Source of the DNA: a virus
DNA: 64,000 nt
IMG/VR virus record: IMGVR_UViG_3300004097_003605
Coordinates: 610-64,609 of that record
Direction: 5' to 3' (one strand)
Shown: piece by piece, positions 5,917-23,352 of the stretch
How the letters are laid out: each line of letters opens with the position of its first letter
Numbering within the stretch: the stretch's first letter is position 1
Position numbers and translations under genes: made by a program
Notes under the pieces: generated by a model
What the model was told of the DNA's origin: nothing
The model's input: the letters and a program-made list of their open reading frames with translations, nothing else
Database searches by the model: none

Positions 5917-5951
5917 CTGTAGACCTACCCGGTCGGAGATCGAACTGACGA
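5917..5951 (-). promoter_or_regulatory. Phage promoter motif, copy A (TCGTCA-N13-CCGGGTAGGTCTACAG)
   Basis: Identical blocks and spacing to the copies at 9695 and 23318; points into the recombinase operon. Confidence 0.75.
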
Positions 5952-5960
5952 ATTCGATCT
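5937..5960. promoter_or_regulatory. Perfect 8-bp inverted repeat AGATCGAA-N8-TTCGATCT, candidate operator
   Basis: Seen directly; overlaps the TCGTCA block of copy A in the divergent region before lexA. Confidence 0.45.
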
Positions 5961-6129
5961 CGCGAAAGTGACCGGCTCGTTCAGTCGCCGACGATTGTTG
6001 CCGAAGACGCCCGCCGGCGAGGGCGGCGATTCGGCGGCTAAAATACTTGTTCAATTGACCTGATAGATATGCGGGCTAAAATGCCGCCAATCAATGGACA
6101 GCAGAAAAAGGCGATGAAAGGACAGTTCT

Positions 6130-6792
6130 GTGGCGGGACAGCGTGCGCGTCGTGGTCGACGCCCAATATCCGGACTCACCGAGCCCCAGCAGAAGACGCT
6201 GGCAGCGGTGCAGGAATGGCTTGCGCGCAATCATGTCCCGCCGACGATGCAGGAACTGGCGGACGCGTTGGGAATCGCTCCCGCCAGTGTGCATGAGCAG
6301 ATCACACAGCTCGTGCGCAAAGGTTATCTGCATCGGGAACCGCGCAAGGCCCGCAGCCTGACTGTGGTCAGGCAGGTGCCCCCCGATCCGGCCGGACTCG
6401 TTTCGGTGCCGATCGTGGGCACGGTCGTTGCGGGCATGCCGCTGCTGGCGGAAGAAAACGTCGAAGGGGAAGTGCTGGTCGACGCGGCTCAGGTGCGTTC
6501 GGGCCGGCACTTCGCTCTGAGAGTTTCCGGTGACAGCATGCAGGATGCCGGCATGCAGACCGGAGACCTGGTCGTCGTCCGTCAACAGCCGGTGGCCGAG
6601 AACGGTGACATCGTGGTCGCACTGCTGGATGGCGAAGCGACCGTCAAACGACTGTCCATACAGGGGCACGAGATTGAACTGCGTCCCGAGAACTCCCGGT
6701 ATCGACCGATACCAGTGGCTCCGGATGCAGATCTTCGCGTGCTGGGCAAAGTCGTGGCGGTTCGCCGAATTCAGCAGGAACAGAACGAATGA
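6130..6792 (+). CDS. lexA: LexA-family repressor (prophage repressor)
   Basis: N-terminal wHTH (PPTMQELADALG), cleavage-site region VVAGMP, catalytic Ser in GDSM and Lys in TVKRL. Confidence 0.9.
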   Translation: MAGQRARRGRRPISGLTEPQQKTLAAVQEWLARNHVPPTMQELADALGIAPASVHEQITQLVRKGYLHREPRKARSLTVVRQVPPDPAGLVSVPIVGTVVAGMPLLAEENVEGEVLVDAAQVRSGRHFALRVSGDSMQDAGMQTGDLVVVRQQPVAENGDIVVALLDGEATVKRLSIQGHEIELRPENSRYRPIPVAPDADLRVLGKVVAVRRIQQEQNE

Positions 6793-8012
6793 CTCGATTT
6801 TCACTGCCAACCGTGCTGCGCATGGTTCCCAACCCGCTGCTGCGGGAATTCTTCATCCGGATGAACCTGGGCTCACTGCCCATCGACTGGGACGGTCTTC
6901 AGAAGCGGGAGATCGGTCCCATCCAGCAGGCTCTGGATGAACTCTCTGACGAGGACTTCGACCGGGTCGAATCGAATCTGCATGATGTCTGCGAGCTGTC
7001 ACGCGAGACCGGATTCAATGCACTGGTCGAAGCGGCAGCGGACGCTGGCGATTTCGATTTCGCCAACCGTCTGCCGGACAATGGCGGCTGGTATCACAAG
7101 GCGATGTGGGCCTGGTTGAATGAACCGGAACTTGTGCAGTCGGCGCTGGTGATTCACGAAGTTCAATCGCTGAGTCGCTGGCGGATACGCACCGATCTGC
7201 CTCACACGAATCCCGACACGTCGCCGGAAGCGGTTGAGCAATTGTCGCGTCAGCTGTCCGATCTGCTGGTCTGGGAACAGGGTCGCGGCCGGCACTGCAC
7301 GGTGGAAAAACTCAGTCGCAAGGGCGTCGAGTACTTTTTCGCGTGGCCTGACGATTTTGTGCAGAACGTCACGGTCCACGATTCGTCCGGACTGTTGCGA
7401 CCACGGATGATGCGGAAGACGTTTCAGATCGTCTTTGCGTTTTCGCCCGCCGACGGGACTCTCGAACTGCTGGCTCGCGTTCCGCCGAAAGTCCGCGACG
7501 GGATCGAAGCCGTCTTCGGCCGCGTGATGCTGGGTGTCGATCTGGCTCCGTGGAAACCGGAGACCGTGTATGACCTCGACGTGCTCAAGGACCCGCACTT
7601 CTCGCTGACCACCGATCCTGAAGATGCAGTCGAAGTTCGGATCCGGGCCATGCGGCTGTCGTTCCGAAACAGCCATCGCCGGATCACGCTGGAAGCCGAT
7701 CCCGACCGGACGCCAGACGACGTTTACCACATGATCGACGAGTGCCTGAACGATACGGGATGTCCGATGCACGCCGTGCATGTGACGCAGGTCACGTTCT
7801 GTTTTCAGTTTGCTCCTCGGAGCCGGACGCGCGGCGGAACGGTGACCTTCAACGTGACCTGGCCGAACTCATGCACCGTCCGCAGCGAACGGCCGGAACG
7901 AGTGGAGATCGTGCACAAGTACCTCAAGCGATGGGGAATCGAACGTGACGAGCAGTCTGTCGAGAGTGCTGCAGACGCTGGAGATGGAGCCAGCCCGGCT
8001 CTCGTCAACTGA
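6789..8012 (+). CDS. Conserved hypothetical protein, 407 aa
   Basis: Long ORF overlapping the lexA stop (ATGA); no motif recognised. Confidence 0.8.
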   Translation: MTRFSLPTVLRMVPNPLLREFFIRMNLGSLPIDWDGLQKREIGPIQQALDELSDEDFDRVESNLHDVCELSRETGFNALVEAAADAGDFDFANRLPDNGGWYHKAMWAWLNEPELVQSALVIHEVQSLSRWRIRTDLPHTNPDTSPEAVEQLSRQLSDLLVWEQGRGRHCTVEKLSRKGVEYFFAWPDDFVQNVTVHDSSGLLRPRMMRKTFQIVFAFSPADGTLELLARVPPKVRDGIEAVFGRVMLGVDLAPWKPETVYDLDVLKDPHFSLTTDPEDAVEVRIRAMRLSFRNSHRRITLEADPDRTPDDVYHMIDECLNDTGCPMHAVHVTQVTFCFQFAPRSRTRGGTVTFNVTWPNSCTVRSERPERVEIVHKYLKRWGIERDEQSVESAADAGDGASPALVN

Positions 8013-8892
8013 CGTCGAACGCTGGCTGTCGCCGTCACCAGCATGGATGAATGGAACTCGAGTTCTGGCAGCGGCGCAGCCGGCGCGTTCGCTGCCCTGT
8101 CCGCACTGCGCCGGAATCGGACGTGTTGCGCCGCTTGCGAAGTCACTGCTGCTGATGTGCCCCGAGTGCGGTCCGACGGGCATTGAGGCGTCGAGTCTCC
8201 AGCGATGGGACATCGACGTTCCCGCACTGCTCGCGCTTCTCAACAGCACAATAAACCTTCGCGGTCCAGCGACTGAACTTGTGACTGGCCGACTCTGGCG
8301 ATGGGGAACAGCCACGTGGAATGGCAGGTCGCGAGAGACCATGTTCGCCCGCAACTGGAAGGGACACGAGGCCAACATTCTCAATGAGATGGATCGCCGC
8401 CCGGCAGCTGTGGTCGTCGTTCCGACTGAAGCATCGGTTCGTCACTGGCCGTTTGCAGGATCGAAAGTCGTGGTCGCGCTGGAAAGCGTTCTTCTCGAAA
8501 CCAGCGATGGCCTCGAGTTCGATGCTGATCAGATCGCTGGCCGGTTTGAGGATGCGTCTGCGGACGAGCGATCTCGTCGGACTGCTCCAAAGAAACGTGG
8601 TGGCCGAGCCGCGAAGATCGAAAAGCTGGTTCACGAAATGCAGCGGCATCTCAATGCCGCGCGGAATCACGCTGCCGATACTCGGGAACGAACGGGTTCG
8701 CCTCGTCTGCTTCCACGACCTACGCAGGCCGAGTTGGCACACATGACAGGACTCAGCGAATCCGATGTCAGCCGCTGCCTGAAGGACGACAGCGCGGACG
8801 TTCTTCGCGTGCTCTGGGAAACAGCTGCTGATCTCAACGCCCTCGTATCGTGGAGCGGGGCCATTCGACCGCCGGTGGAAGTAGAGGACTAA
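7945..8892 (+). CDS. Hypothetical Zn-finger + C-terminal HTH protein
   Basis: CPHC...CPEC, and RPTQAELAHMTGLSESDVSRCL HTH-like segment. Confidence 0.75.
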   Translation: MTSSLSRVLQTLEMEPARLSSTDVERWLSPSPAWMNGTRVLAAAQPARSLPCPHCAGIGRVAPLAKSLLLMCPECGPTGIEASSLQRWDIDVPALLALLNSTINLRGPATELVTGRLWRWGTATWNGRSRETMFARNWKGHEANILNEMDRRPAAVVVVPTEASVRHWPFAGSKVVVALESVLLETSDGLEFDADQIAGRFEDASADERSRRTAPKKRGGRAAKIEKLVHEMQRHLNAARNHAADTRERTGSPRLLPRPTQAELAHMTGLSESDVSRCLKDDSADVLRVLWETAADLNALVSWSGAIRPPVEVED

Positions 8893-9077: not shown

Positions 9078-9686
9078 ATGCTGCAGATCACTGACAATTC
9101 CACCGACCAACAAAGCCAGCCCCGCATTCCCGACAACTTCTCAACGTCGGTCGTTCGTCGCGCCGCCCGGCGCATGGTCGGGCGAGCCGGGTTCCAGTCC
9201 CATGACCGGGACGACATCGAACAGGAACTCTGGCTCAAGTTGCTACGCCATGCCGAGTCCTTTGACCCGAAGCGTGCCCACTGGCATGTCTTTGTGACGA
9301 CGGTCGTCAATCGCTACGCAGCGAACCTGCTGCGCGACCAGCGCGCTCTCAAACGCGACCGTGACCGGCTGGATTCGCTGCATGGCAAAGTGCGGGTCTC
9401 GGGCGAGGCACCGGTTGAACTCGGTGACTGTCTCGACACCACGGAAAAGAACCGCCATCGCGGACAGGTACCGCGTGATCAACTCGAGCAGGAATCGCTG
9501 GCCGTTGATGTCGCCTCACTGCTTGAAACGCTCAACCACGACGACCGCGACCTGGCCAGGCGATTGAGCGAAACGTCGATCTCTCAGGCGGCGCGCGAAT
9601 TGGGAGTCCCACGGACAACGCTCAATGACGCAGTTCGGCGACTGCGCCAGCGCTTCGAAGACGCAGCACTCCGAGACTGGCTTTGA
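9078..9686 (+). CDS. Phage-encoded sigma-70 family (ECF-like) sigma factor
   Basis: Region 2-like DDIEQELWLKLL...FVTTVVNRYAANLLR and region 4 HTH SISQAARELGVPRTTL; GGAG RBS. Confidence 0.85.
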   Translation: MLQITDNSTDQQSQPRIPDNFSTSVVRRAARRMVGRAGFQSHDRDDIEQELWLKLLRHAESFDPKRAHWHVFVTTVVNRYAANLLRDQRALKRDRDRLDSLHGKVRVSGEAPVELGDCLDTTEKNRHRGQVPRDQLEQESLAVDVASLLETLNHDDRDLARRLSETSISQAARELGVPRTTLNDAVRRLRQRFEDAALRDWL

Positions 9687-9694: not shown

Positions 9695-9729
9695 TCGTCA
9701 CCTCGCGTCCGAACCGGGTAGGTCTACAG
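9695..9729 (+). promoter_or_regulatory. Phage promoter motif, copy B
   Basis: TCGTCA-cctcgcgtccgaa-CCGGGTAGGTCTACAG; 37 nt before the ATG at 9766, the first gene of the replication operon. Confidence 0.78.
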
Positions 9730-9765
9730 GTAGAGACGAAACAAACCCCGCCGAGGAACACCTGG

Positions 9766-10089
9766 ATGCACAGCGCTGCCCGACGCTTCGTCTTCGCAGA
9801 CGAAGTCCCCTTCGAGGATGTGGAAGCGAGCCTGCTGCTCGCGATCTGGGCTACGGAAAGCCTGCATGGCAGTGAACGCGTCCGCATGGACGCGGGGCAT
9901 TTTCTCGACAAGGACGCTCGCACCGTCGTCGTCGCGGCCGACACCGATGTCGGTCGCGACCTGTGCAAGGTGTTCCTCGGCTTTCTTCGTCGTGAGTTCG
10001 GCGAAGACGCCTTTCGAATTGAACGCAACAACCAACCCAATCCACGTCATTCAATCAACGAAAGGACTGCAACTACATGTCACTCATGA
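9766..10089 (+). CDS. Hypothetical protein, first gene of the replication operon
   Basis: ATG 9766 with GAGGA RBS, in the frame of ORF 9625..10089. Confidence 0.75.
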   Translation: MHSAARRFVFADEVPFEDVEASLLLAIWATESLHGSERVRMDAGHFLDKDARTVVVAADTDVGRDLCKVFLGFLRREFGEDAFRIERNNQPNPRHSINERTATTCHS

Positions 10090-10862
10090 AGCAGATTCAG
10101 AAGGGGCGGCAACCCATGCCGCCACGACTGGCGGTGTACGGCACAGAGGGCATCGGGAAGAGCACGTTTGCGGCGCAGGCTCCGAAACCCGTCTTCATCC
10201 AAACTGAAGACGGACTCGCGGAGATCGACTGTGACCGCTTCCCGCTTTCCACCACTTTCGAAGACGTCGAGACGGCATTGGCCGAGCTCGCAATGGAGCA
10301 GCACCACTACCAGACGGTCGTGATTGATTCATTGGATTGGCTGGAGCGTCTGATCTGGGACGACCTTTGCCAGCAGTACAACGTCTCATCGATCGAGAAG
10401 GTCGATGGCGGCTATGCCAAGGGCTACACGCACGCCGTGTCTCTCTGGCGCAAAGTGCTGGACGCCTTGAACGGACTTCGAACCGAACGCGGCATGGTCG
10501 TGATCTGCATTGCTCATGCGAAGGTCGAGAAGTTCGAAGACCCGGAAACCGCCGCTTACGACCGCTATTCGCCTCGGTTGCACAAGCACGCCAGCGCACT
10601 CGTCAACGAATGGTCGGACGCCGTGCTGTTCGCCACGCGGAAGTTCCGCACTCAGACGGAAGATGCTGGCTTCGGTCGCAAACGGTCGATCGCGAAGGAA
10701 ATCGGTAACGCCGGCGGCGAACGCATTCTGCGCTGCGTTGGCGGACCGTCATGCATCGCGAAGAACCGCTACGGCATCGACGAAGAGATTGATCTCTCTT
10801 GGACGGCTTTCATCAACGCACTCTCATCAACCAAACCATCAACAGGAGAAAACAATGGCTGA
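10077..10862 (+). CDS. Sak4-like phage recombination ATPase (AAA_24)
   Basis: YGTEGIGKST Walker A, VVIDSLDWLE Walker B, AKNR C-terminal motif. Confidence 0.85.
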   Translation: MSLMKQIQKGRQPMPPRLAVYGTEGIGKSTFAAQAPKPVFIQTEDGLAEIDCDRFPLSTTFEDVETALAELAMEQHHYQTVVIDSLDWLERLIWDDLCQQYNVSSIEKVDGGYAKGYTHAVSLWRKVLDALNGLRTERGMVVICIAHAKVEKFEDPETAAYDRYSPRLHKHASALVNEWSDAVLFATRKFRTQTEDAGFGRKRSIAKEIGNAGGERILRCVGGPSCIAKNRYGIDEEIDLSWTAFINALSSTKPSTGENNG

Positions 10863-11313
10863 CCTGCAGGGATTCGACGCGAACGAAGTGGAACCAACAT
10901 CAGACTTCGAAGCGATTCCAGCCGGCAAGTACGTGGCTGTCATCACTGAGTCGGAAAAGAAACCGACAAAGGCTGGCACAGGCCAGTATTTGCAACTGAC
11001 GTTTCAGATCATCGAGGGACCTCACAGCAATCGGATTCTGTGGGCTCGCCTGAATCTGGATAACCCGAACGCGACGGCCGTCGCCATCGCGAAGGCGGAA
11101 CTGTCGGCTGTGTGTCGAGCCGTCGGTGTCATGGCTCCGAAGGACTCGGTGGAACTTCACAACCTGCCACTCGTGATCCACGTACGCTGCCGACGGCGTG
11201 ACGACACGGGTGACATTACGAATGAGATCCGCGGCTACTCCCGGAAAGAGTCTCCGCCGGTCGCTGCGGCCGCGGCGACATCAGTCAGGACGCCTCCGTG
11301 GAGCCGTGCCTGA
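10855..11313 (+). CDS. DUF669 family (phage ssDNA-binding-like) protein
   Basis: AGGAG RBS; FEAIPAGKYVAVITESEKKPTKAGTGQYLQLTFQI motif; follows the Sak4-like gene. Confidence 0.85.
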   Translation: MADLQGFDANEVEPTSDFEAIPAGKYVAVITESEKKPTKAGTGQYLQLTFQIIEGPHSNRILWARLNLDNPNATAVAIAKAELSAVCRAVGVMAPKDSVELHNLPLVIHVRCRRRDDTGDITNEIRGYSRKESPPVAAAAATSVRTPPWSRA

Positions 11314-11744
11314 TGGTGGAACTGGAGTTGCCGTGGCCACCGTCGATTAACCACTACTGGCGTCGGGTCGGAGCACGAACGCTGATCAGCCGCGAGGGTC
11401 GCCGGTTCCGGGAAACCGTACTGGCGATTCTCGCGGAGACGTCGATTGTGCCACTCACGGAAGAACTCGAAATGCTGATCGTGGCCTCACCGCCTGATCG
11501 TCGGCGGCGTGACATCGACAACATCGCGAAAGCACTCCTGGATGCACTTCAGCACGGTGGCGTCTACATCGACGACAGCCAGATCGTCGACCTGAGAATC
11601 AAGAAAGCCGATCCCATCAAAAGCGGCAGAACTCTCGTGCAGATCTTTGAACTGACTGGCGACGGTCATTCGAACGATTGCGCGGCGAGAAACTCGGCGG
11701 GAGTCAGGATCGGGCATTCTCCGGAGGTTGGAAAGTGCCCCTGA
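11313..11744 (+). CDS. rusA: RusA family Holliday-junction resolvase (C-terminus runs into the inserted TA module)
   Basis: PWPPSINHYW, RRRDIDNIAKALLDAL, DDSQI motifs. Confidence 0.9.
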   Translation: MVELELPWPPSINHYWRRVGARTLISREGRRFRETVLAILAETSIVPLTEELEMLIVASPPDRRRRDIDNIAKALLDALQHGGVYIDDSQIVDLRIKKADPIKSGRTLVQIFELTGDGHSNDCAARNSAGVRIGHSPEVGKCP

Positions 11745-12091
11745 TTGCGAGTTACCAGACAGTCGGCATTCGCCTGAACGGCACTCTGATATTGAACCGC
11801 GTCTTCAAAGTCCCGGAACTTTGCGTCTATCGCGAGTTGGATGGTGCTGGCGTTGCAGGCAACCGGCGTGAAAGCATCGCGGAGCAGACCGAGCGCCCGT
11901 CGAGCCGTCCTGAGATCGGTCAGTCGCCGAACGATGTAAAAGATGTTCGTGAAACTGAGGACCGATATCTGGCCAGTCACCGACTGCTGCTCGGCCAGCG
12001 TCCAGATCGCCGCCGAGTCGTCGTAGAACGGTTCCCGATCTGCCAGCACGTCGATCAGAACGTTGGTGTCAAGGAAAACCTTCATGGTCAC
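11666..12091 (-). CDS. PIN-domain (VapC-like) toxin
   Basis: FLDTNVLID...DFEDAVQY...LVTRN PIN acidic motifs. Confidence 0.88.
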   Translation of the reverse strand: MTMKVFLDTNVLIDVLADREPFYDDSAAIWTLAEQQSVTGQISVLSFTNIFYIVRRLTDLRTARRALGLLRDAFTPVACNASTIQLAIDAKFRDFEDAVQYQSAVQANADCLVTRNQGHFPTSGECPILTPAEFLAAQSFE

Positions 12092-12333
12092 AAGCCGTGC
12101 TTTTCTGCCAGAGCGTCTTCCAGCACATCGCGCTCTGACTGTCCTTCAGGAAGCTGGATGATCCCCGTTGCACGACGGGTCAATCGCCCGATCCGAGGCC
12201 GTTCGCGATCACGCTGCGACAGCAACTGGACGAAGCGCGAGAACATGGCTGACACACTTGTGCCCTGGCTCTTCGCCAGGCGATGTGCCTCGGAAATGAC
12301 TTCAGGATCAGCGCTGAGCGTGAGTTTTTTCAT
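12088..12333 (-). CDS. RHH-type antitoxin (DUF6364-like)
   Basis: MKKLTLSADPEVISEAHRLAKSQGTSVSAMF; overlaps the start of the PIN gene. Confidence 0.82.
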   Translation of the reverse strand: MKKLTLSADPEVISEAHRLAKSQGTSVSAMFSRFVQLLSQRDRERPRIGRLTRRATGIIQLPEGQSERDVLEDALAEKHGL

Positions 12334-12426
12334 TAGAGCTGCCTCGTTACGTATTGGGGGCGATAAATCGTACGTATCAGTCAGGTGGCGGGCAAGACCG
12401 ACTTCTCGAAATCAGGAGCCGGTGAA

Positions 12427-14079
12427 ATGCTGACTCTTCGCGCTTATCAGGAAGCTGCCCGGGCAGCGGTCTACGAGCACCTTCGATCGCGGGACGATAA
12501 CCCGTGCGTCGTGATTCCCACAGGCGGTGGCAAGACACCCGTCATCGCTTCGATCTGCCACGACGCTGTGACGCTCTGGCAGGGGCGGGTTTTGATTCTT
12601 GCACACGTGAAGGAACTGCTTGAGCAGGCTGCTGACAAACTGCGAGTCGTTTCGCCGGAACTTGAGTTCGGCATCTACTCGGCCGGGCTCAATCGGCGGG
12701 ATACGGGCAGCGGCGTCATCGTCGCCGGCATTCAGAGCGTTCATCGCCGGGCCCGGGAACTTGGGGCGTTCGACCTCATCATGATTGACGAGGCGCACAT
12801 GCTGCCGCCTGAAGGCGAAGGCATGTATCGGCAGTTCCTGAGCAATGCACAGGATGAGAATCCCAACGTCAGGCTCATCGGGTTCACAGCGACGCCGTTC
12901 CGAATGAAGGACGGCCCGATCTGCACACCGGACCATTTTCTTACTCACGTCTGCTACGAAGTCGGGGTGCGGGAACTGATCCGGGACGGTTACCTCTCAC
13001 CATTGACCGCAAAGGCCGGCCGGGAACAGGCCGACACGGATGCCCTGCATGTCCGGGCTGGCGAATTCGTCGCCGGCGAAGTCGAAGCGCTAATGGACAC
13101 CGAAGTGCTTGTCGAGTCGGCCTGCACCGAGATCATTGAAACCACGCGGGATCGCCGTGCCGTTCTGATCTTCGCGTCGGGCGTCCAGCACGGTGAGCAC
13201 GTTACGTCGGTCATCGAGCGGCATGGTTTCGAATGCGGGTTCATCAGCGGCCAAAGCTCGACGTCAGAACGCGACGCGACGCTCAAGCGATTCCGAGACG
13301 GCGGTCTGAAGTACCTGGCCAACGTCAATGTGCTGACGACCGGCTTCGACGCCACGCACATCGACTGCGTCGCACTGCTCCGGCCGACGCTCTCGCCGGG
13401 CCTCTACTACCAGATGGTCGGTAGGGGGTTCCGCTGCCATCCGGGGAAGCAGAACTGCCTCGTTCTGGATTTTGGTGGCAACGTGCTCCGTCATGGACCG
13501 GTGGACGCGATTCAGATTTCAGAGGCCGCAGAAACACTCGGTGAAGCCCCGGCAAAGATGTGTCCGGAATGCCGGTCGCTGATCGCCGCAGGCTACAGCG
13601 TATGTCCCGAATGTGGATTCGAGTTCCCGCCGCCTGATCGTCAGAAGCACGAAGCGAAGGCCAGTCAGACCGGAGTGCTGTCAGGCGAAGCAACCGACGT
13701 CCGATACGACGTGCTCGACGTCCGCTACAGCGTCCATCTGAAACGCGATGCCGATGAAGGCACGCCACGAACGATGCGCGTCGAGTACCGACTGGGTCTC
13801 GATCACTGGCAGTCTGAGTGGGTCTGCTTCGAGCATACCGGATACGCCCGGTGGAAAGCGGAGCAGTGGTGGAAACGCCGCTCGCCGGACCATGTACCCG
13901 AAACAGCACAGGACGCAGTCGACATCGCCAACGCCGGCGGCGTCGCCCTGGCGGAAACGATCACGGTGTGCAGTGTTGCTGGTGAGAAGTACGACCGAAT
14001 CATCGCATACGAACTGGGTGAACTGCCGGAGCCCGTCATTCATCAACCGAGTTTCGATGATGACGAGGTGCCCTTCTGA
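12427..14079 (+). CDS. SF2 DEAD/DEAH helicase with Zn finger
   Basis: PTGGGKT, IDEAH, TATP, QMVGRGFR, CPEC...CPECG; likely start is the ATG at 12427. Confidence 0.9.
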   Translation: MLTLRAYQEAARAAVYEHLRSRDDNPCVVIPTGGGKTPVIASICHDAVTLWQGRVLILAHVKELLEQAADKLRVVSPELEFGIYSAGLNRRDTGSGVIVAGIQSVHRRARELGAFDLIMIDEAHMLPPEGEGMYRQFLSNAQDENPNVRLIGFTATPFRMKDGPICTPDHFLTHVCYEVGVRELIRDGYLSPLTAKAGREQADTDALHVRAGEFVAGEVEALMDTEVLVESACTEIIETTRDRRAVLIFASGVQHGEHVTSVIERHGFECGFISGQSSTSERDATLKRFRDGGLKYLANVNVLTTGFDATHIDCVALLRPTLSPGLYYQMVGRGFRCHPGKQNCLVLDFGGNVLRHGPVDAIQISEAAETLGEAPAKMCPECRSLIAAGYSVCPECGFEFPPPDRQKHEAKASQTGVLSGEATDVRYDVLDVRYSVHLKRDADEGTPRTMRVEYRLGLDHWQSEWVCFEHTGYARWKAEQWWKRRSPDHVPETAQDAVDIANAGGVALAETITVCSVAGEKYDRIIAYELGELPEPVIHQPSFDDDEVPF

Positions 14080-16073: not shown

Positions 16074-16165
16074 CCGGAACACACAGTGGGACACACCCCT
16101 ATAAGGGGGTGTCCCCACTGTGTGTGCGATGGCCCGGTGGAGCACTGGTCGATTTGTCCCAGTGG
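16031..16165. repeat. GGGAC(A) iterons plus a 20-bp-arm inverted repeat; candidate phage replication origin
   Basis: GGGAC at 16032, 16041, 16051, 16088; inverted TGTCCC near 16110 and 16155; hairpin ACACAGTGGGACACACCCCT-ATA-AGGGGGTGTCCCCACTGTGT at 16081-16123. Confidence 0.6.
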
Positions 16166-16325
16166 CACAGTGCCGGCTGCTCAGGCATGGACGCGGTCAG
16201 GCGGAGCCAACCCCATGCGATTAGGTACTTCCGAACGATGCGAACAGAAACATCCACGCGGGAACAGCAGCGCTATTGAGGACAGTTTGTTTTGTGTGTC
16301 CGAAGTCTGAACGGAGTCAGAAATC

Positions 16326-17648
16326 ATGAGAATTGAGCAACGGAAACTGACGGACGTCAAACCCTATGAGCAGAACCCGCGTCTCAACGATGGCGCGGTG
16401 GAACCCGTGGTCCAGAGCATTCAGGAGTTCGGATTCCGGCAGCCGATTGTGGTCGACGAGGATGGCGTGATCATCGTCGGTCACACGCGATTCAAGGCGG
16501 CTCAGAAACTGGGGCTGGAGAAGGTGCCGGTCCATGTGGCGAAAGGACTGACGCCAGCGCAGGTGAAGGCTTACCGCCTCGCCGATAACCGCACGGGTGA
16601 GATCGCCGAGTGGGATTACGATCTGCTGCCCATCGAACTGTCGCAGCTTGGCGAGATGGACTTCGATCTGGGCATGCTCGCCTTCACGCAGGACGACCTG
16701 GCGACGCTGCTCGACCCGGGCGTGCAGGAAGGGCTCACCGATCCAGACGCAGTTCCTGAACCACCGGACGAAGCGATCACGCAACCCGGCGACCTTTGGA
16801 TCCTTGGCGATCATCGACTGCTGTGCGGCGACAGTTCGAAGCCTGAAGACGTGGATCGGCTGCTCGATGGCCAGGCGATCCACATCGTAAATATGGATCC
16901 GCCGTACAACGTGAAGGTCGAACCGCGGTCGAACAATGCGATCGCCGCCGGCCTGTCGTCGTTCGAGGGCGCGAAGCATCACCAGAAGCTGGACGTCGCT
17001 CGGCATCCCGAGAAGGCGAAGCCTACGCAGAAAAAGCTGCGAGCGAAGGACCGTCCGCTGGCCAATGACTTCGTGTCCGATGAGGAATTCGATCGGTTGC
17101 TGGATGCGTGGTTCGGGAACGCGGCGCGAGTGCTTGAGCCTGGTCGGGCGTTCTATATCTGGGGCGGCTATGCGAATTGTGCCAACTACCCGCCGTTCCT
17201 GAAGAAGCATGGCCTGTACTTCTCGCAGGCAATCATCTGGGACAAGCAGCATCCTGTGCTGACTCGGAAGGATTTCATGGGAGCGCACGAGTGGTGCTTC
17301 TACGGCTGGAAAGAAGGCTCGGCACACCAGTTCTTTGGACCGAACAACGCGACCGATCTATGGGCGATCAAGAAGGTCAACCCGCAGTCGATGATTCATC
17401 TCACGGAGAAGCCAGTTGAGCTGGCGGTGCGGGCGATGCAGTACTCATCCCGCACTGGCGAGAACGTGCTTGATCTGTTCGGCGGCTCCGGCAGCACGCT
17501 CATGGCGGCGGAGCAGACCGGACGCAAAGCGTTCCTTATGGAACTCGATTGCCTGTATGCCGACGTGATCGTCAAGCGGTGGGAGGAGTTTACGGGCCGT
17601 AAGGCGGAGCGGATCGCGGCAGTTCCAGAACAGGAGGTACCGGCATGA
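16326..17648 (+). CDS. ParB-like N-terminal domain + N6/N4 DNA methyltransferase
   Basis: NPRLND...QPIVVD...GHTR ParB motif; DPPY; LDLFGGSGST. Confidence 0.92.
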   Translation: MRIEQRKLTDVKPYEQNPRLNDGAVEPVVQSIQEFGFRQPIVVDEDGVIIVGHTRFKAAQKLGLEKVPVHVAKGLTPAQVKAYRLADNRTGEIAEWDYDLLPIELSQLGEMDFDLGMLAFTQDDLATLLDPGVQEGLTDPDAVPEPPDEAITQPGDLWILGDHRLLCGDSSKPEDVDRLLDGQAIHIVNMDPPYNVKVEPRSNNAIAAGLSSFEGAKHHQKLDVARHPEKAKPTQKKLRAKDRPLANDFVSDEEFDRLLDAWFGNAARVLEPGRAFYIWGGYANCANYPPFLKKHGLYFSQAIIWDKQHPVLTRKDFMGAHEWCFYGWKEGSAHQFFGPNNATDLWAIKKVNPQSMIHLTEKPVELAVRAMQYSSRTGENVLDLFGGSGSTLMAAEQTGRKAFLMELDCLYADVIVKRWEEFTGRKAERIAAVPEQEVPA

Positions 17649-18025
17649 TCTACCTGGCCAGCCCTTACACGCATGCAGACGCCACGATTCGGGAAGAACG
17701 ATTTCGTGCGGTCTGTCGCGCGGCAGCCACGCTCATGCGACAGGGCCACGTTGTCTTCGCACCGATCGTTCATGGGCATCCGCTGGTGGCGGAAGGGCTG
17801 CCGATCGAATGGCCGTGGTGGGAGCGGTTCGATCGCGAGCATCTGTCGCGCTGCGACGAAGTTGTTGTGCTGATACTCGATAGCTGGGAAACGAGCACCG
17901 GCGTGCAGGCTGAGATCCGAATCGCGGAGGAACTCGGCAAGCCGGTGCGTTATCTGGCTCCGGTTGACACCGTCGCGCCCGGTTCGCCCGTGTTGGCGCG
18001 TGTGGCGATGGAGGGCGGGCTTTGA
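17645..18025 (+). CDS. DUF1937 family (nucleoside deoxyribosyltransferase-like fold)
   Basis: MIYLASPY...APIVHGH...STGVQAEI motifs. Confidence 0.85.
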   Translation: MIYLASPYTHADATIREERFRAVCRAAATLMRQGHVVFAPIVHGHPLVAEGLPIEWPWWERFDREHLSRCDEVVVLILDSWETSTGVQAEIRIAEELGKPVRYLAPVDTVAPGSPVLARVAMEGGL

Positions 18026-18102
18026 ACGTTCTACGGACCAACGAGAAAACGCCCCGACGTCGCGAACGTGGGGCGTCACGCGCTACGGAGCGCGTCGGGC
18101 GG

Positions 18103-18285
18103 TCAGTTGCCAGTCGCGTCGCTGGTGGGAACGGGCGTGTCGAGGCGGTCTGCGATCGCCAGCAGGGCCTCGACCAGATCCCAGGCATCAATGCGTGTGG
18201 AACGCCGGCCTTCATCCAGCGTTGTCTGCATGGCGGCGGTCACGTCGCGGATGGCGTCCGCCACTTCAGCTCGTGTTGTCGTCAT
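18103..18285 (-). CDS. Small hypothetical protein (60 aa)
   Basis: ATG 18285 with GGAG RBS, in the frame of ORF 18103..18420. Confidence 0.6.
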   Translation of the reverse strand: MTTTRAEVADAIRDVTAAMQTTLDEGRRSTRIDAWDLVEALLAIADRLDTPVPTSDATGN

Positions 18286-18445
18286 CGTATTCGTACTCCG
18301 CATCGGGTTCGTAAAGATGTCCGCAGCTCGCACAGCGGACGGTTTCGAAGTTGTCCTGCCAGACCAGGCGATCCGCGTCGCGTTCTCCGCAGCGCGGACA
18401 TTCGCAGCCGGGCGGGACATCGCTGGATCGTCGTTCGGCGATCAT
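18266..18445 (-). CDS. Small Zn-ribbon protein (59 aa, not in the ORF track)
   Basis: Manual translation MIAERRSSDVPPGCECPRCGERDADRLVWQDNFETVRCASCGHLYEPDAEYEYDDDNTS; AAGGAG RBS. Confidence 0.65.
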   Translation of the reverse strand: MIAERRSSDVPPGCECPRCGERDADRLVWQDNFETVRCASCGHLYEPDAEYEYDDDNTS

Positions 18446-18459
18446 GTTCGGCGTCTCCT

Positions 18460-18825
18460 TCAGGCGGTCTTCAGGGCGAAGCGGCCGCGATCGGTCTTCA
18501 CAAATCGGCTGTCGTCGCCCTTCGTTCTGATCTCGCGGATGATCGCGGCGTAAAGTGTGGCGTGAGGCGTTTTGCCACCGGGGCTCGTCCAGTAGCCTTT
18601 GGTCGCCATCGTCTCGATCATCTCCTTCGAAGCCATCGGTTCGGTCGCTTCGCCGAGCACCTTTGCCGCAGCGTCCAAGGCGCTGAGCCTCTTCGCGGAG
18701 CCGGCCTTCTTCGCCGACTGTTTCTTCGCAGCCGGTTTCGCGGCATCCGGCTTTGCCGTCGCGCTCTTGCGAGTCGTGGCCTTCCGCGTGGTCGCCTTCT
18801 TCATCGTGGTCTTACTTGCAGCCAT
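18460..18825 (-). CDS. Lys/Ala-rich N-tail + winged HTH (HARE-HTH-like) DNA-binding protein
   Basis: [18 protein letters not shown] repeats; [16 protein letters not shown]...[11 protein letters not shown]. Confidence 0.8.
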
Positions 18826-18854
18826 TCTTCGTTCCCCTTCGTAAAGTGGGTCCA

Positions 18855-18887
18855 GAAACAGAAAGAGCCGGCCAACGTGGCCGGCTC
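18855..18887 (-). terminator. Intrinsic terminator-like hairpin
   Basis: GAGCCGGCCA-CGT-TGGCCGGCTC 10-bp stem followed by TTTCTGTTTC on the minus strand, at the stop of the 86-aa gene. Confidence 0.6.
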
Positions 18888-19146
18888 AGGAGTCCGTCGT
18901 AGTTGCCCGGTCTTTCCGGGCGAGCATCTTGTGATGCCAGTTCCAGAGTTCGATCTCGTCCTCGGTCGCGGGTCGCACCGTGTGAATGACGATCGGATGG
19001 TTGCCGTACTTCTCGCGGAAATCGGCGTAGAGGTCCTCAAGCAGCGGCATGGCCATCTCGCGGGCGAGCGTTTCGTTGTCGGCGTCGACCAGCACGTACC
19101 GCGTGACCGTCGCGACCAGCCAGGTGGTTGTGTTTGCGTTCTTCAT
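18886..19146 (-). CDS. Hypothetical protein, 86 aa
   Basis: GGCTCCTGCG region with RBS-like AGGGCT upstream; part of the antisense small-gene cluster. Confidence 0.65.
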   Translation of the reverse strand: MKNANTTTWLVATVTRYVLVDADNETLAREMAMPLLEDLYADFREKYGNHPIVIHTVRPATEDEIELWNWHHKMLARKDRATTTDS

Positions 19147-19158
19147 CGCAGGAGCCCT

Positions 19159-19458
19159 TCAGTCGCGGGTGTTGAGGAAGCGGGTGATCGAGCGTCGCGT
19201 CCAGGCGGGCAGCGGGCCGCTGATCCAGCCGTCGTGCGTCATCGCGTCAGCGAGGTGGCGTCCGTCTCGGCTGTCGAGGAAGTCGCGGGCGTGCTCGCTG
19301 GTCAGCCCGAATGCGTGAATCAACTCGCAGCTCACGTCACCCCAGATCTCACGGGCGTCGGTGTCGCTGCAGCCGGTGTTCGAAAGCGTGGTCCCAAAGA
19401 AACCCCACGCTTCGTTCCGTGTGGCGAGGATCTCGGGCATGTCGTGTGTGGCGTTCAT
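19159..19458 (-). CDS. Hypothetical phage protein (RNEAWGFFGT motif)
   Basis: ATG 19458 with GGAG RBS, within ORF 19159..19512. Confidence 0.7.
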   Translation of the reverse strand: MNATHDMPEILATRNEAWGFFGTTLSNTGCSDTDAREIWGDVSCELIHAFGLTSEHARDFLDSRDGRHLADAMTHDGWISGPLPAWTRRSITRFLNTRD

Positions 19459-19574
19459 CGTACGCGTCTCCGTAGTTCGTGGTCCGTTCAACAACGAGAC
19501 ACATGGAGCCATGAGACGCGGACGAACTCCAGCGAGTTCGCGAATGATTCCAGCATCTTTTCAAAGGTTTCCTG

Positions 19575-19787
19575 ATGTCGTCAGATGACCACGATCGCAG
19601 CCTGAATCCGACAGCACTGGCGATCCCGGCTGCAGCCGCGCTGCTGTCGAAGGTCGGTGGGAAGCCCGTGCGCGAGGACACGCTGCGGGCGGACATCGAG
19701 GCCGGCGCTCCGACGAATGCGAATGGCACGATCAACCTGGTGATGTACGCCGCGTGGCTGGTAAAGGGACTCGGACGTGGCGATTGA
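19575..19787 (+). CDS. Small terminase-associated DNA-binding protein (terminase small subunit candidate)
   Basis: 70 aa; overlaps the terminase start; C-terminal INLVMYAAWLV resembles the terminase N-terminal VDLLRYVAWLV. Confidence 0.65.
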   Translation: MSSDDHDRSLNPTALAIPAAAALLSKVGGKPVREDTLRADIEAGAPTNANGTINLVMYAAWLVKGLGRGD

Positions 19788-22041
19788 TCCTCGCAAACTC
19801 AGACCGGGCGAACTGTGCCGGCTGTTGAACTCGACCCCGCTGGGCGAAGTCATCAGCGAACGCCAGCTTTACCGCCACCGTACGCGGGCAGGCTTTCGCG
19901 TGGGTGACGGCCGGCATGTCGACCTGCTGCGGTACGTCGCGTGGCTCGTCGATGTCTGTCACCGGCCAGAAGCGGAACCGGACGCCGATCCCTACAGCAC
20001 ACTCAAGGAGCGAGCTCGTGCCCGTAATGCCGCAATCGCGCAGGCCGGTCGAGACATTGGCGAACTGCCGGCGATCGGCAATTCCGATCGACGTCATCGG
20101 GCCGAACGCGATTTTCGATTTTTCTGCGAGGCCTACTTCCCGCTGACATTTCATCTGGCCTGGTCGCCGGACCATCTCAAGGTCATCGCGAAGATCGAAG
20201 AGGCAGTGCTTGAAGGCGGTCTGTTCGCGATGGCGATGCCGCGTGGCAGCGGCAAGACGACAATCTGTGAATGTGCCTGCATCTGGGCCGTGCTGAACGG
20301 CCACCGCGAGTTCGTCTGCCTCATCGGTTCGAACGAAGGCCACGCGATGGACATGCTGGATTCCATCAAGACGGAACTCGACGGCAACGAGCTGCTGCTG
20401 GCAGACTTCCCCGAGGTCGTCTTTCCGATCCAGTGTCTTGATGGCATCGCGAACCGATGCAGCGGCCAGCTTCACCAAGGTGAGCGAACTCACATCGGCT
20501 GGACGGCCCGCGAAGTTGTGCTGCCCACGATGCCGGGTTCGTTGGCCAGCGGAGCGATCATCAAAGTCGCAGGCATCACCGGTCGGATTCGTGGAATGAA
20601 GTTCAAGCGATCCGATGGTCAGACGGTGCGACCGTCACTGGTCGTGCTCGACGATCCACAAACCGACGAGTCGGCCCGCTCGCTGTCTCAGTGTGCGAAT
20701 CGTGAGAGCATTCTGGCCGGAGCGGTCCTTGGTCTCGCTGGGCCGGGGAAGAAGATCAGCGGCATCATGCCCTGCACGGTGATTCGGCCCGGCGACATGG
20801 CCGACAGCATTCTTGATCGCGATCGGCATCCCGAATGGAACGGCGAACGCACCCGCATGGTTTACTCGTTCCCTGACGACGAAAAGCTGTGGGCTCGTTA
20901 CGCGGAACTCCGCGCAGAAGGCATGCGGAGCGGCGACGGTGGCAAAGCAGCGACCGAATTCTACGCTCAACATCGGGAAGCGATGGACGTCGGTGCGAAG
21001 ATCGCGTGGCCGGAACGCCACAATCACGACGAGCTGTCAGCGATCCAGCACGCGATGAATCTCAAACTGCAGGACGAGGCTGCATTTTTCGCAGAGTATC
21101 AGAACGAACCGCTGCCGGAGGAAACCGTCGACGAGGACATGCTCACCGCTGACCAGATCGAGGCGAAGATCAACAACATCCAGCGCGCCGAGATTCCAAT
21201 CTCGTGCAACCACCTGACGATGTTCATCGACGTGCAGCAGAAACTGCTGTTCTTCTGCGTGTGCGCGTGGGAAGACGACTTCACCGGCTACGTCGTCGAC
21301 TACGGCTCTTTTCCTGACCAGAAGCGGACGTACTTCACGCTACGGGATGCGCGCCACACGCTGGCCAATGCGTCACCGGGCAGTGGCCTGGAAGGTTCGA
21401 TCTACGCGGGCCTCGAAGCACTGACGCAGCAGTACCTCAGCCAGGAGTGGAAACGGGACGATGGAGCGGCGTTGAAGATTGATCGCTGTCTGATCGATGC
21501 CAACTGGGGGCACTCGACTGATGTTGTCTACCAGTTCTGCCGGCAAAGCAGTCACTCGACGATTATCACGCCATCGCATGGACGCTTTGTCGGCGCGTCG
21601 AGCATTCCCTTTTCCGAGTACAAGCGAAAACAGGGCGATCGCGTCGGACTCAACTGGCGCATCCCCAACGTCCGAGGCAAGCGGGCCATTCGGCATGTCG
21701 TCTACGACACGAACTGGTGGAAGTCGTTCGTCCACGCGAGGCTGGCGGTTTCGATGGGCGACCGGGGCTGCCTGTCGGTGTTCGGTTCAAAGCCCGAAAC
21801 ACACCGACTGTTTGCCGAGCAGGTCACCGCCGAGTACTTCGTCAAAACAACCGGTCGCGGCCGAACAGTCGACGAATGGAAACTTCGCCCAGAGCAGTCC
21901 GACAACCACTGGCTGGACTGTCTCGTTGGAAGTGCTGTGGCAGCATCAATTCAGGGAGCGGTTTTGTTTGGCACCGACGTCGCGCCGGTGCTGCCACGTC
22001 GTCGTCTGAAGCTCTCTGAACTGCAGAGAGGGCGACGTTGA
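19777..22041 (+). CDS. Terminase large subunit (GpA-like)
   Basis: Walker A MPRGSGKTT, Walker B VVLDDPQ, nuclease motifs FIDVQ and DNHWLDC. Confidence 0.9.
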   Translation: MAIDPRKLRPGELCRLLNSTPLGEVISERQLYRHRTRAGFRVGDGRHVDLLRYVAWLVDVCHRPEAEPDADPYSTLKERARARNAAIAQAGRDIGELPAIGNSDRRHRAERDFRFFCEAYFPLTFHLAWSPDHLKVIAKIEEAVLEGGLFAMAMPRGSGKTTICECACIWAVLNGHREFVCLIGSNEGHAMDMLDSIKTELDGNELLLADFPEVVFPIQCLDGIANRCSGQLHQGERTHIGWTAREVVLPTMPGSLASGAIIKVAGITGRIRGMKFKRSDGQTVRPSLVVLDDPQTDESARSLSQCANRESILAGAVLGLAGPGKKISGIMPCTVIRPGDMADSILDRDRHPEWNGERTRMVYSFPDDEKLWARYAELRAEGMRSGDGGKAATEFYAQHREAMDVGAKIAWPERHNHDELSAIQHAMNLKLQDEAAFFAEYQNEPLPEETVDEDMLTADQIEAKINNIQRAEIPISCNHLTMFIDVQQKLLFFCVCAWEDDFTGYVVDYGSFPDQKRTYFTLRDARHTLANASPGSGLEGSIYAGLEALTQQYLSQEWKRDDGAALKIDRCLIDANWGHSTDVVYQFCRQSSHSTIITPSHGRFVGASSIPFSEYKRKQGDRVGLNWRIPNVRGKRAIRHVVYDTNWWKSFVHARLAVSMGDRGCLSVFGSKPETHRLFAEQVTAEYFVKTTGRGRTVDEWKLRPEQSDNHWLDCLVGSAVAASIQGAVLFGTDVAPVLPRRRLKLSELQRGRR

Positions 22042-22220
22042 TGGGCGAGTCGAAGTCAAATCTGTCGAACTCTCGGCAGGGAATCGAATGTCCGAGGTGC
22101 GGTTGTCGACATTTCTTCGTCATCTATACGCGGCCCCGGGAAGGGAAGATCGTCCGTCGAAAAGAATGTCGACACTGCCAGTGGAGAGTGACCACTTCGG
22201 AAACGTTGGCTGGCTCGTGA
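22041..22220 (+). CDS. Small Zn-ribbon protein (Ogr/NrdR-like), possible late regulator
   Basis: CPRCGC...RRKECRHC. Confidence 0.7.
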   Translation: MGESKSNLSNSRQGIECPRCGCRHFFVIYTRPREGKIVRRKECRHCQWRVTTSETLAGS

Positions 22221-22270
22221 GAAAAGTGCCTGACCGAACCTCTCGTCGCCGTCGTGTATCCTGATCGACA

Positions 22271-23164
22271 ATGAGAATCGTCGACTTCCAACTTGAACCA
22301 ATCGTAGAGTTTCCGTTTCTGAATGCTGGTCGCGGAGCTGGGGGGTTCTACGTCGATCGACTTCCGGTGCATGTTGCGACAGTCGACCGTCTCCCGGCTG
22401 ATGCTCTTGCTGTAGTGGTGACTGCAGATCTCCAGGGGCGGGAGAGATTTGAAGACTCCGCAGGCGGACCGATTCGGCTCCTTGGTGAAGTCATACCGGA
22501 CCGTCTAGTCGCCGAAGTACTTCCACGTTTCGGAATCGACAACGGCAAGCACGTACGAGCGCTTCTGGCTGGTGATTTCTACACTGTTCCGAGACTCGAC
22601 AAGCGGGGTGGGACGGGTGACGTGACGGATGTGTGGAATGCATTCGCGGATTGCTTCGATTGGGTTGCTGGTGTTGCCGGAAACCACGACATCTTCAGTG
22701 ACCATCAATCCTGCCGACCGCGACTTCCGTCGAATGCCCATTATTTCGACGGGGACGTCGTTGAAATAGATGGACTGAAGATTGCTGGAATCGGTGGAAT
22801 CATTGGTAAGGCCACCCGCCTGAATCGTCGCAGCCATGACGATTACCTTGCGACGCTCAATCGTGTCCTCGACCGCGAGCCGGATGTTCTGATCATGCAC
22901 GATGGTCCCGCTGGACCACATGAGTCACAGCGGGGAATCTCGGAAGTACGCGACGCTTTGCTACGAAGAAGAGACTGCCTGGTCATTCGCGGGCATGCTC
23001 ACTGGAAGCAGCCATTCGTCGAGTTCGAAAACGGACTGCAGGTTCTCAACGTCGACGCCCGAATTGTCATCCTCACATCGGATGACCGGGCAGCGAACGC
23101 AATGCGGGCCCAGGCACTGGACGAGTTGGCCGCTCAGGCGCAGCAACTCGACATGGGCGACTGA
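22271..23164 (+). CDS. Calcineurin-like metallophosphoesterase (moron)
   Basis: ADLQG, AGDFY, AGNHD, MHDGP, GHAH motifs. Confidence 0.82.
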   Translation: MRIVDFQLEPIVEFPFLNAGRGAGGFYVDRLPVHVATVDRLPADALAVVVTADLQGRERFEDSAGGPIRLLGEVIPDRLVAEVLPRFGIDNGKHVRALLAGDFYTVPRLDKRGGTGDVTDVWNAFADCFDWVAGVAGNHDIFSDHQSCRPRLPSNAHYFDGDVVEIDGLKIAGIGGIIGKATRLNRRSHDDYLATLNRVLDREPDVLIMHDGPAGPHESQRGISEVRDALLRRRDCLVIRGHAHWKQPFVEFENGLQVLNVDARIVILTSDDRAANAMRAQALDELAAQAQQLDMGD

Positions 23165-23317
23165 GTCGGCACTCATCTGCGAGTGCGATGTCGTTGAGCC
23201 ACATCTCGAAATAGCGGTCAAGGCCGACCAGACGTTGAAGCACTGTGTGAGTTTCCAGCCGCTGATCACTCTTTGGTTCCACATATGGAGCAAGTCTGTC
23301 AATCAGGGCCGATTCCG

Positions 23318-23352
23318 TCGTCAGTTCGAACCGCAACCGGGTAGGTCTACAG
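23318..23352 (+). promoter_or_regulatory. Phage promoter motif, copy C
   Basis: TCGTCA-gttcgaaccgcaa-CCGGGTAGGTCTACAG; 44 nt before the GTG at 23396, the first morphogenesis gene. Confidence 0.78.

Follow-up and report, generated by a model that had tools for sequence, protein, structure and literature searches.

Three copies of a bipartite motif as candidate promoters for an ECF-type sigma factor encoded by an uncultured temperate phage

The virus contig described here carries three exact copies of one bipartite motif, each just ahead of an operon, together with a gene for an ECF-type sigma factor. We propose that the three copies are promoters for the host RNA polymerase core directed by the phage sigma, a reading that we consider likely from the comparison of related sequences. 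The stretch analyzed, hereafter the window, comprises 64,000 nt from a marine metagenome (IMGVR_UViG_3300004097_003605, positions 610-64,609). If confirmed, this arrangement would amount to a complete and simple regulatory map, from repressor to sigma to three promoters, for widespread uncultured temperate phages of Planctomycetota, Armatimonadota and Nitrospirota. To our knowledge, little is known about phage gene regulation in these three groups.

Three copies of one motif precede three operons

The pattern TCGTCA-N13-CCGGGTAGGTCTACAG has three exact matches in the window, at the positions given in an earlier note on this DNA:

5917-5951, minus strand: motif copy A, putative P-int; exact match, with CGTCA at 5950-5946 and GGTA at 5929-5926
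9695-9729, plus strand: motif copy B, putative P-rep; exact match, with CGTCA at 9696-9700 and GGTA at 9717-9720
23318-23352, plus strand: motif copy C, putative P-late; exact match

The earlier note had found no other copy, and a scan of the entire 71,615-bp record (G000) likewise returned no fourth occurrence of the 35-nt pattern at up to three mismatches. Chance expectation is negligible (mean 0.00, maximum 0 in 100 shuffles). The 16-mer CCGGGTAGGTCTACAG by itself, again with up to three mismatches, falls on the same three sites only, and relaxed scans (CGNCA-N16-GGTA; CGTCA-N15-17-GGTA) added a single match at 33590-33566 on the minus strand, where late ORFs cover the plus strand. Searching the literature with the motif strings returned only unrelated primer sequences.

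Each copy is intergenic and points in the same direction as the next gene. The distances to the first genes measure 88, 36 and 43 nt, in agreement with the 37-89 nt of the earlier note, and all three start codons have a ribosome-binding site: copy A precedes the ATG at 5828 of a 62-aa ORF that lies ahead of DUF2924 and the serine integrase, copy B precedes the ATG at 9766 (site GAGGA), and copy C precedes the GTG at 23396 (site AGGAGA). Copy B begins 8 nt past the stop codon of the sigma gene, which ends at 9686. The operons behind the copies are as follows:

3097-5828, minus strand: operon 1, from Pfam and PHROG matches; 62-aa ORF (5640-5828), DUF2924 protein (5093-5593), large serine integrase (3504-5096) and 136-aa recombinase-associated protein (3097-3507)
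9766-23164, plus strand: operon 2; 107-aa protein, Sak4-like ATPase, RusA, helicase, primase-polymerase, ParB-methylase, gpA-like large terminase and metallophosphatase
23396-42903, plus strand: operon 3; 65-aa protein, lambda-type portal, protease-capsid fusion and cement protein, then further plus-strand ORFs

The gene identities that the earlier note assigned to these operons hold, but copy C heads the portal, head and tail block and not all of packaging, because the large terminase (19777-22041) lies upstream of it. The four genes of operon 1 also follow the motif in the relatives L020, L035, L052, L069 and L070 and in the integrase module G010:C31, and the plus-strand ORFs of operon 3 run unbroken to 42903 without a further motif copy.

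It is extremely unlikely, in our judgment, that the copies serve in recombination, packaging or (as iterons) replication, form a structured RNA or are mere inherited repeats instead of acting as transcription signals. Although one copy adjoins the integrase module, all three stand co-oriented and immediately upstream of operon starts. Folding gave no signal of RNA structure at the copies (z = -0.21, +1.33 and +0.93), and the motif shows no tandem-repeat or iteron arrangement. In relatives whose sigmas are 33-52% identical, the two short blocks are kept while the spacer is free to vary, and this pattern points to selection on a bipartite protein-binding site.

The phage sigma factor and its operon

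The gene at 9078-9686 had been described as encoding an ECF-like sigma, and matches to TIGR02937, to Sigma70_r2 and to known folds all agree. The sigma gene and the features upstream of it are:

6055-6082, plus strand: sigma-70-like promoter TTGACC-N16-TAAAAT ahead of the operon from LexA to sigma, a consensus match only
6130-6792, plus strand: phage LexA homologue, an S24 autopeptidase repressor and the first gene of the sigma operon
6789-8892, plus strand: conserved proteins of 407 aa (6789-8012) and 315 aa (7945-8892), with homologues in relatives
9078-9686, plus strand: ECF-type sigma factor P0001, 202 aa, from profile matches, an AF2 model and a fold search

P0001 scores 62.2 bits against the TIGR02937 sigma70-ECF profile (cut-off 42.9) over residues 25-194, and 38.4 against Pfam Sigma70_r2 (cut-off 24). 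Its AF2 model (pLDDT 89) consists of two helical domains with a less confident linker, and over about 180 columns its best fold matches in the PDB are the ECF sigmas SigL, SigH, AlgU and RpoE. When PDB sequences were searched with a profile of the sigma alignment, nothing reached E<=0.001. Both its membership of the curated family and its possession of sigma-2 and sigma-4 without regions 1.1 and 3 mark P0001, in sequence and fold, as bona fide ECF (group 4) type.

The phage LexA homologue scores 183.5 bits against the TIGR00498 lexA equivalog (cut-off 110.95), matches both LexA_DNA_bind and Peptidase_S24 in Pfam, and has VAG, SGDSM and VKR motifs in its translation. The 315-aa protein contains a Zn-ribbon-like stretch and a C-terminal HTH. 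Homologues of the 407- and 315-aa proteins are present in L020, L035 and L052, and none was detected by tblastn in L037, L051, L069 or L070. The candidate promoter at 6055-6082 is the sole sigma-70-type match between 5500 and 10200 (10/12 positions) and is kept in a 90% relative. No recognized LexA box was seen near it, only an 8-bp palindrome, spotted by eye, and a GGCTAAAAT direct repeat.

Promoter type and the conserved core

Across lineages the conserved core is CGNCA-N16-GGTANGT, in which CGNCA resembles a -35 element and GGTANGT a -10 element. The upstream block takes the form (T/G/C)CGTCA or CCG(A/G)C(A/G). The earlier note had implied a GTC(T)-type -10 for the downstream block, which the comparison does not support: the GTCT of the 16-mer is swapped in relatives (GGTATC, GGTAAC, TTTAAC, GTTAAC or AAGTAA), and it is GGTA that stays. 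ECF promoters are bipartite, with a spacer of 14-17 bp between the -35 and a group-specific -10, and the CGNCA-N16-GGTA spacing lies within that range (PMC5758882). The system resembles canonical ECF regulons in its two-domain sigma and bipartite promoter, but differs from them in several respects (PMC5758882). The AAC of ECF -35 elements is missing from the upstream block and occurs only sporadically in spacers, the downstream block is not of the usual CGT/GTC type, profile searches recognized no domain of an anti-sigma, a common but not universal partner of ECF sigmas, in the genes neighboring the sigma, and the putative regulon is the lytic program of a phage. What remains of the 16-mer (CTACAG, often then GTAGAG) probably spans both discriminator and start site. 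Because 16 exactly conserved bases exceed the needs of a sigma, a second factor may also bind the motif.

Covariation of motif and sigma, which the earlier note had put forward as a check, looks perfect at six versus six. All six sigmas paired with a CG(A/G)C upstream block have Tyr in the recognition helix of sigma-4 ('T(L/I)-Y'), whereas all six paired with CGTCA have a non-Tyr residue at that position. However, a single change on the tree suffices to produce this split, so we do not count it as independent replication.

The motif follows the sigma across relatives

Of the lineages whose sigmas are 33-52% identical, most have the element directly behind the stop codon of the sigma gene. These lineages include a Fimbriimonadales group (L013-L021, L034, L040), the Planctomycetaceae MAG L035, the loci L043, L048, L051 and L069, and a class II set (L037/L049, L047, L052, L070). 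The relatives derive from MAGs and metagenomes; Planctomycetota are among them, as the earlier note had expected, but so are Armatimonadota and Nitrospirota. Second and third copies stand before the small ORF/DUF2924/integrase genes and the late genes in L020/L025/L029, L035, L037, L052, L069 and L070, and the full three-slot layout of the window is repeated in L020/L025/L029, L052 and L070. Where the integrase module is inverted with respect to the sigma (the L020 group, L037, L070 and G010:C31), the motif is inverted too. The distance from block to block is invariant in all instances while the spacer sequence differs between lineages, and in L051 the motif is retained amid T-rich flanks. L044 and L046 carry CGTCG-N13-CCGGCTCGTA.

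The motif accompanies the sigma even in loci that lack both LexA and the 407/315-aa homologues, and it persists where XRE/ImmA replaces LexA. As far as these loci reveal, the presence of the motif goes with that of the sigma and not with that of the LexA-like repressor or of the 407- and 315-aa proteins. L020, L037 and L070 have a motif copy upstream of the sigma gene in the same orientation, which suggests that in those elements the sigma is autoregulated instead of being expressed from an earlier host-sigma promoter; the window has no such co-oriented copy. Five more distant sigma loci (L036, L038, L053, L067 and L068) lack this motif. A de novo repeat search behind the sigmas of L036, L038 and L053 yielded no convincing alternative, and L067 and L068 have a different switch architecture.

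These comparisons bear on whether the motif might instead be the site of another phage DNA-binding protein acting together with a host sigma, either as an asymmetric operator or as a site from which the 315-aa Zn/HTH protein or the 107-aa protein activates transcription. Asymmetric repressor operators do exist, as in the 'stoperators' of mycobacteriophage L5. Such a site would accord with 16 bp of exact identity, which is longer than a typical -10, with the perfect 9-bp inverted repeat that brackets the CGTCA of copy A, and with the 107-aa gene of the copy B operon, which accompanies the sigma in every lineage compared. However, no sigma-70-type -10/-35 was found at or just downstream of any of the three copies, the 107-aa protein has no DNA-binding domain recognizable by profile searches, and the motif outlasts both the loss or replacement of LexA and the disappearance of detectable 407/315-aa homologues. 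Two blocks at a fixed spacing and in strict co-orientation are also a better fit to a promoter than to an operator. We therefore regard this explanation as unlikely.

A further possibility is that the motif is the promoter of a host alternative sigma exploited by the phage, and that the phage sigma has other targets. Its geometry is generally like that of an alternative-sigma promoter, and G010:C31 is an integrase module with two motif copies but no sigma in the 36 kb of contig read. The other sigma homologues of G010, an incomplete MAG, are without a recognizable motif. Against a host sigma stand the retention of one core in prophages of three phyla and the change of the motif together with the phage sigma clade. 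Moreover, scans of four whole host MAGs located the core solely on contigs that carry a prophage or an integrase module, with one match in coding sequence as the exception. We consider a host-sigma promoter very unlikely. A cognate promoter of the phage sigma, as first proposed in that note, agrees with all of the comparative tests run (slots, orientation, spacing, host-MAG scans and tracking of the sigma).

A proposed regulatory cascade

We infer the following cascade from the repeats, their gene contexts, the family of the sigma and the behavior of the motif in relatives, where its sequence, orientation and spacing are kept and where, within host genomes, it is nearly exclusive to prophage and integrase-module contigs. 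That this sigma binds the motif, that transcription starts where we place it and that LexA is the trigger are all predictions. The sigma-70-like promoter at 6055-6082 would drive the operon that runs from the phage LexA homologue to the sigma. Inactivation of the LexA-like repressor, presumably by RecA-stimulated self-cleavage, would derepress this operon and allow the sigma to accumulate. The sigma would then fire P-int (copy A) for the putative excision and integration genes, P-rep (copy B) for replication, recombination and terminase, and P-late (copy C) for a block of about 19.5 kb that holds the portal, head, tail and remaining genes. Transcription would be expected to start at roughly 5916-5911, 9730-9735 and 23353-23358, respectively. 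With repressor and sigma encoded in a single operon, this cascade does not account for the silence of the sigma in a lysogen.

None of the RNA runs searched contains the window. On a Fimbriimonadales relative, the reads from three hot-spring metatranscriptomes (0, 0 and 2) were too few to use, and one microbial-mat RNA library gave five contigs, too short to show a start site.

More tentatively, and with slightly less than even confidence, we hypothesize that these loci represent a portable master switch, in which a swappable damage-sensing repressor (either a LexA of the phage or XRE together with an ImmA-like protease) sits over one ECF-type sigma. Two to three CGNCA-N16-GGTANGT promoters would run the entire lytic program, including integrase and excision, in serine-integrase temperate phages of at least three phyla. 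Natural variants would differ in specificity, with CG(A/G)C read by sigmas that have the sigma-4 Tyr and CGTCA by those that have another residue there, and integrase modules without a sigma, such as G010:C31, would be mobilized in trans by the sigma of a helper phage.

Confirmation would also add to the ECF sigma/promoter pairs one whose -35 is unusual in having no AAC, along with natural specificity variants. These could find use as orthogonal parts for gene expression, and recognition of the -35 by sigma-4 could be tested on them. The motif is in addition a practical marker, since a scan for it marks out operons and points to metagenomic prophages of this family.

Comparison with known systems

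Classical phage sigma cascades use a few near-identical promoters before middle or late operons. The layout described here, with the sigma on the element and near-identical candidate promoters heading later operons, very likely makes this a system of that known kind. SPO1 gp28 and gp33/34 and T4 gp55 are non-ECF sigmas of lytic phages that replace the promoter specificity of the host. Unlike these, the temperate phage in the window appears to place integrase and excision, replication and morphogenesis under one sigma.

When DNA is damaged, SigN (ZpdN) of the B. subtilis plasmid pBS32 is released from repression by the host LexA and brings polymerase to promoters of its own, one of them autoregulatory (PMC6751061). 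The two systems are alike in having a sigma on a mobile phage-like element together with a set of its own promoters, putative ones in the case of the window. They differ in that the LexA homologue in the window is encoded by the element itself, in one operon with the sigma, in that no co-oriented motif lies upstream of the sigma gene there, and in that the promoter consensuses are unrelated.

Kuravirus phages are virulent podophages that are not known to carry an integrase or repressor. In the account of Savalia 2008 given by PMC7881722, phiEco32 gp36 and related Kuravirus ECF-like sigmas bind host RNA polymerase and are an outlier among ECF families; on that account, gp36 is like P0001 a phage-encoded ECF-type sigma. 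A tblastn search of 50,697 GenBank phage records with P0001 gave no match to the Kuravirus sigmas. The only records matched were those of Wolbachia phage WO, at 23-26% identity over 77% of the length. The sigma-like gene of phage WO is annotated as hypothetical and, although very distant in sequence, resembles the sigma gene of the window in its position, as in MN180251 it heads a run of co-oriented genes.

A probable promoter for the phage sigma factor

We think it likely that a two-block motif in the window is the promoter recognised by the phage's own ECF-type sigma factor, P0001 (202 aa). A pattern scan of the window and of the 71,615-bp IMG/VR record containing it bore out the earlier note's count of three exact copies of TCGTCA-N13-CCGGGTAGGTCTACAG with a fixed spacer, and found no copy beyond these:

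5917-5951, minus strand: copy A, exact match (putative P-int)
9695-9729, plus strand: copy B, exact match (putative P-rep)
23318-23352, plus strand: copy C, exact match (putative P-late)

At up to three mismatches the window holds no fourth copy, the 16-mer block alone marks the same three sites only, and 100 shuffles that preserved dinucleotides yielded no chance match. Relaxed scans (e.g. CGNCA-N16-GGTA) add one match, at 33590-33566 on the minus strand, within the plus-strand late ORF region. A sigma-70-type promoter is absent from all three copies, and their regions fold no better than shuffled sequence. The gene blocks are arranged as follows:

Copy A, leftward: 88 nt to a 62-aa ORF, then DUF2924, a large serine integrase and a 136-aa recombinase-associated protein
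Between copies A and B, rightward: operon of a LexA homologue, an unknown 407-aa protein, a 315-aa protein and the 202-aa sigma
6055-6082, preceding the LexA-to-sigma operon: sigma-70-type promoter match TTGACC-N16-TAAAAT, the sole such match in the region
Behind copy B, plus strand: replication block of a conserved 107-aa gene, Sak4-like ATPase, RusA, helicase, primase-polymerase and ParB-methylase, also a gpA-like large terminase
Behind copy C, plus strand: 43 nt to a 65-aa gene, then lambda-type portal, protease-capsid fusion and cement protein

The earlier note had rightly recognised integration, replication and head-tail blocks; the terminase belongs to the second of these and not the third. 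It lies at the end of that block (19777-22041), upstream of copy C, with a metallophosphatase gene between it and the portal. Plus-strand ORFs behind copy C are unbroken to 42903. Copy B begins 8 nt past the sigma stop codon and lies 36 nt ahead of the 107-aa gene (9766-10089; YRYxF...ESLHGE...CVIDA...VGRD.NRLF), whose family is first behind copy B in every lineage compared, has no Pfam or NCBIfam match and falls in mostly viral Atlas clusters.

The sigma operon opens with a true LexA homologue (TIGR00498, 183.5 bits), and its 315-aa protein has a Zn-ribbon-like stretch and an HTH. Around the sigma-70-like promoter (window 6036-6089) stand two candidate operators for the phage LexA: a direct repeat, GGCTAAAAT, at 6036 and 6074, the latter copy overlapping the -10 hexamer, and an 8-bp palindrome, TCAATTGA, noticed by eye, that overlaps the -35 hexamer. 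None of the known LexA boxes could be recognised in this stretch.

The ECF-like sigma that the earlier note placed at 9078-9686 is well founded. P0001 scores 62.2 bits with TIGR02937, the curated ECF model (cut-off 42.9), and also passes Pfam Sigma70_r2; its AlphaFold model, made from 48 homologues, has two helical domains (pLDDT 89) and is closest to the solved ECF sigmas SigL, SigH, AlgU and RpoE.

Conservation and covariation of the motif

Scanning viral contigs with the exact pattern returned two close relatives (~87-90% nucleotide identity); searches with the sigma protein as query were more informative. In a group of Fimbriimonadales MAG and viral contigs, whose sigma is ~52% identical to P0001, GCGTCA-N13-CCGGGTAGGTCTAC lies directly past the sigma stop codon with a spacer sequence unlike the window's. 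A second copy stands ~50 nt ahead of the 65-aa-gene homologue and the next gene, and a third ~90 nt ahead of a small ORF, DUF2924 and integrase; compared with the window this integrase module is flipped, and its motif copy along with it. A Planctomycetaceae MAG (sigma 39% identical) has two copies, and loci L043, L048, L051 (in T-rich surroundings) and L069 also carry the motif. A second class, CCG(A/G)C(A/G)-N13-(T/C/G)CCGGTA(A/T)GTAA, occurs in L037/L049 (Nitrospirales MAG), L047, L052 and L070; of these, L037, L052 and L070 have three copies apiece. Aligned by spacing, all instances share the core CGNCA-N16-GGTANGT; the GTCT associated in the earlier note with ECF -10 elements is not conserved among relatives.

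The Nitrospirales prophage L037 also has two exact 19-nt repeats (9141-9159 and 9253-9271) just upstream of the motif copy preceding its sigma gene, which probably serve as operators of a sigma promoter under autoregulation. Five contigs (150-184 nt) of microbial-mat metatranscriptome X27 are 100% identical to a Fimbriimonadales prophage (L040 5281-10610), too few for inferring transcription or start sites; one begins at L040 8605, within the copy B downstream block, and no start site can be inferred from it.

The co-variation of motif and sigma that the earlier note suggested testing in relatives is present, with a caveat. Directly after the conserved T(L/I) of the sigma-4 recognition helix, all six sigmas with a CG(A/G)C upstream block have Tyr, and the six with CGTCA have Asn, Leu, Arg or Gln; sigma-2 differs by class too (FVTTVV versus F(M/I)ARIV). 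However, a single branch of the maximum-likelihood tree separates the two classes in 96% of bootstrap trees, and the covariation may therefore reflect one evolutionary event. It agrees with the sigma-promoter model and would not count as independent replication.

Specificity and rival readings

The earlier note would have taken a motif common in host intergenic DNA as refuting the promoter reading. Scans of four host MAGs of relatives (2.9-5.9 Mb), using the class II core or the 12 bases of the class I core, confined the motif to prophage or integrase-module contigs, plus one coding-region match; within these relatives' hosts the reading passes the note's test. Conservation across phyla and absence from the scanned host chromosomes, that match aside, make it unlikely that a host sigma reads the motif.

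The sigma operon has a modular head: it is occupied by LexA in the window and in L035, by an XRE repressor and an M78 ImmA-like protease in L052 (4927-6007) and L053 (6453-7568), and by neither in the Fimbriimonadales group. Homologues of the 407- and 315-aa proteins are undetectable in L037, L051, L069 and L070. The motif persists in all of these except L053, and so follows the sigma rather than its neighbouring regulators. This independence, together with fixed two-block geometry and strict co-orientation, favours a promoter over a binding site for another protein, for which it can be said that 16 identical bases exceed what a sigma needs and that the CGTCA of copy A sits between the 9-bp arms (5936-5944 and 5953-5961) of a perfect inverted repeat (window 5936-5961). 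That repeat, a candidate operator that could occlude P-int, is weaker in the 90% relative (7/9, alignment by eye).

The promoter reading has weak points. The AAC usual in ECF promoters is missing from the upstream block, sigma and repressor share one operon, which sits awkwardly with a sigma held off in the lysogen, and in more distant sigma clades the motif is absent. On G010:C31, a Planctomycetota MAG contig (L065 6411-9369), two copies lie in tandem, 110 nt from each other, ahead of a small ORF, DUF2924, a serine integrase sharing 67% identity with that of the window, and the 136-aa gene, with no sigma or phage body within the 36 kb examined; other sigma homologues in that MAG have no recognisable motif. 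This module may be a remnant or a trans-driven element. In the 183-aa sigma clade (L067 9599-10001, L068 2277-2682), two sigma-like genes diverge from a 400-nt stretch dense in ATTGGGGACA-type repeats, a palindrome included; this is a different switch design and lacks CGNCA-N16-GGTA.

Relation to known systems

Sigma cascades of phages and plasmids are already well known, SPO1 and T4 being the classical phage examples. A comparable element-borne cascade is that of pBS32, whose SigN is repressed by LexA and recognises its own promoters (PMC6751061), and phiEco32, like the window phage, has a gene for an ECF-like sigma (cited in PMC7881722). Our literature search found no description of the P0001 family or the motif, as the earlier note had supposed for the latter. 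A search of 50,697 GenBank phage records with P0001 gave weak matches (23-26% identity) to hypothetical proteins of Wolbachia WO phages and to nothing else. In WO record MN180251 (L071 6917-7411) the sigma-like gene heads a co-oriented gene run, divergent from methylase and terminase genes.
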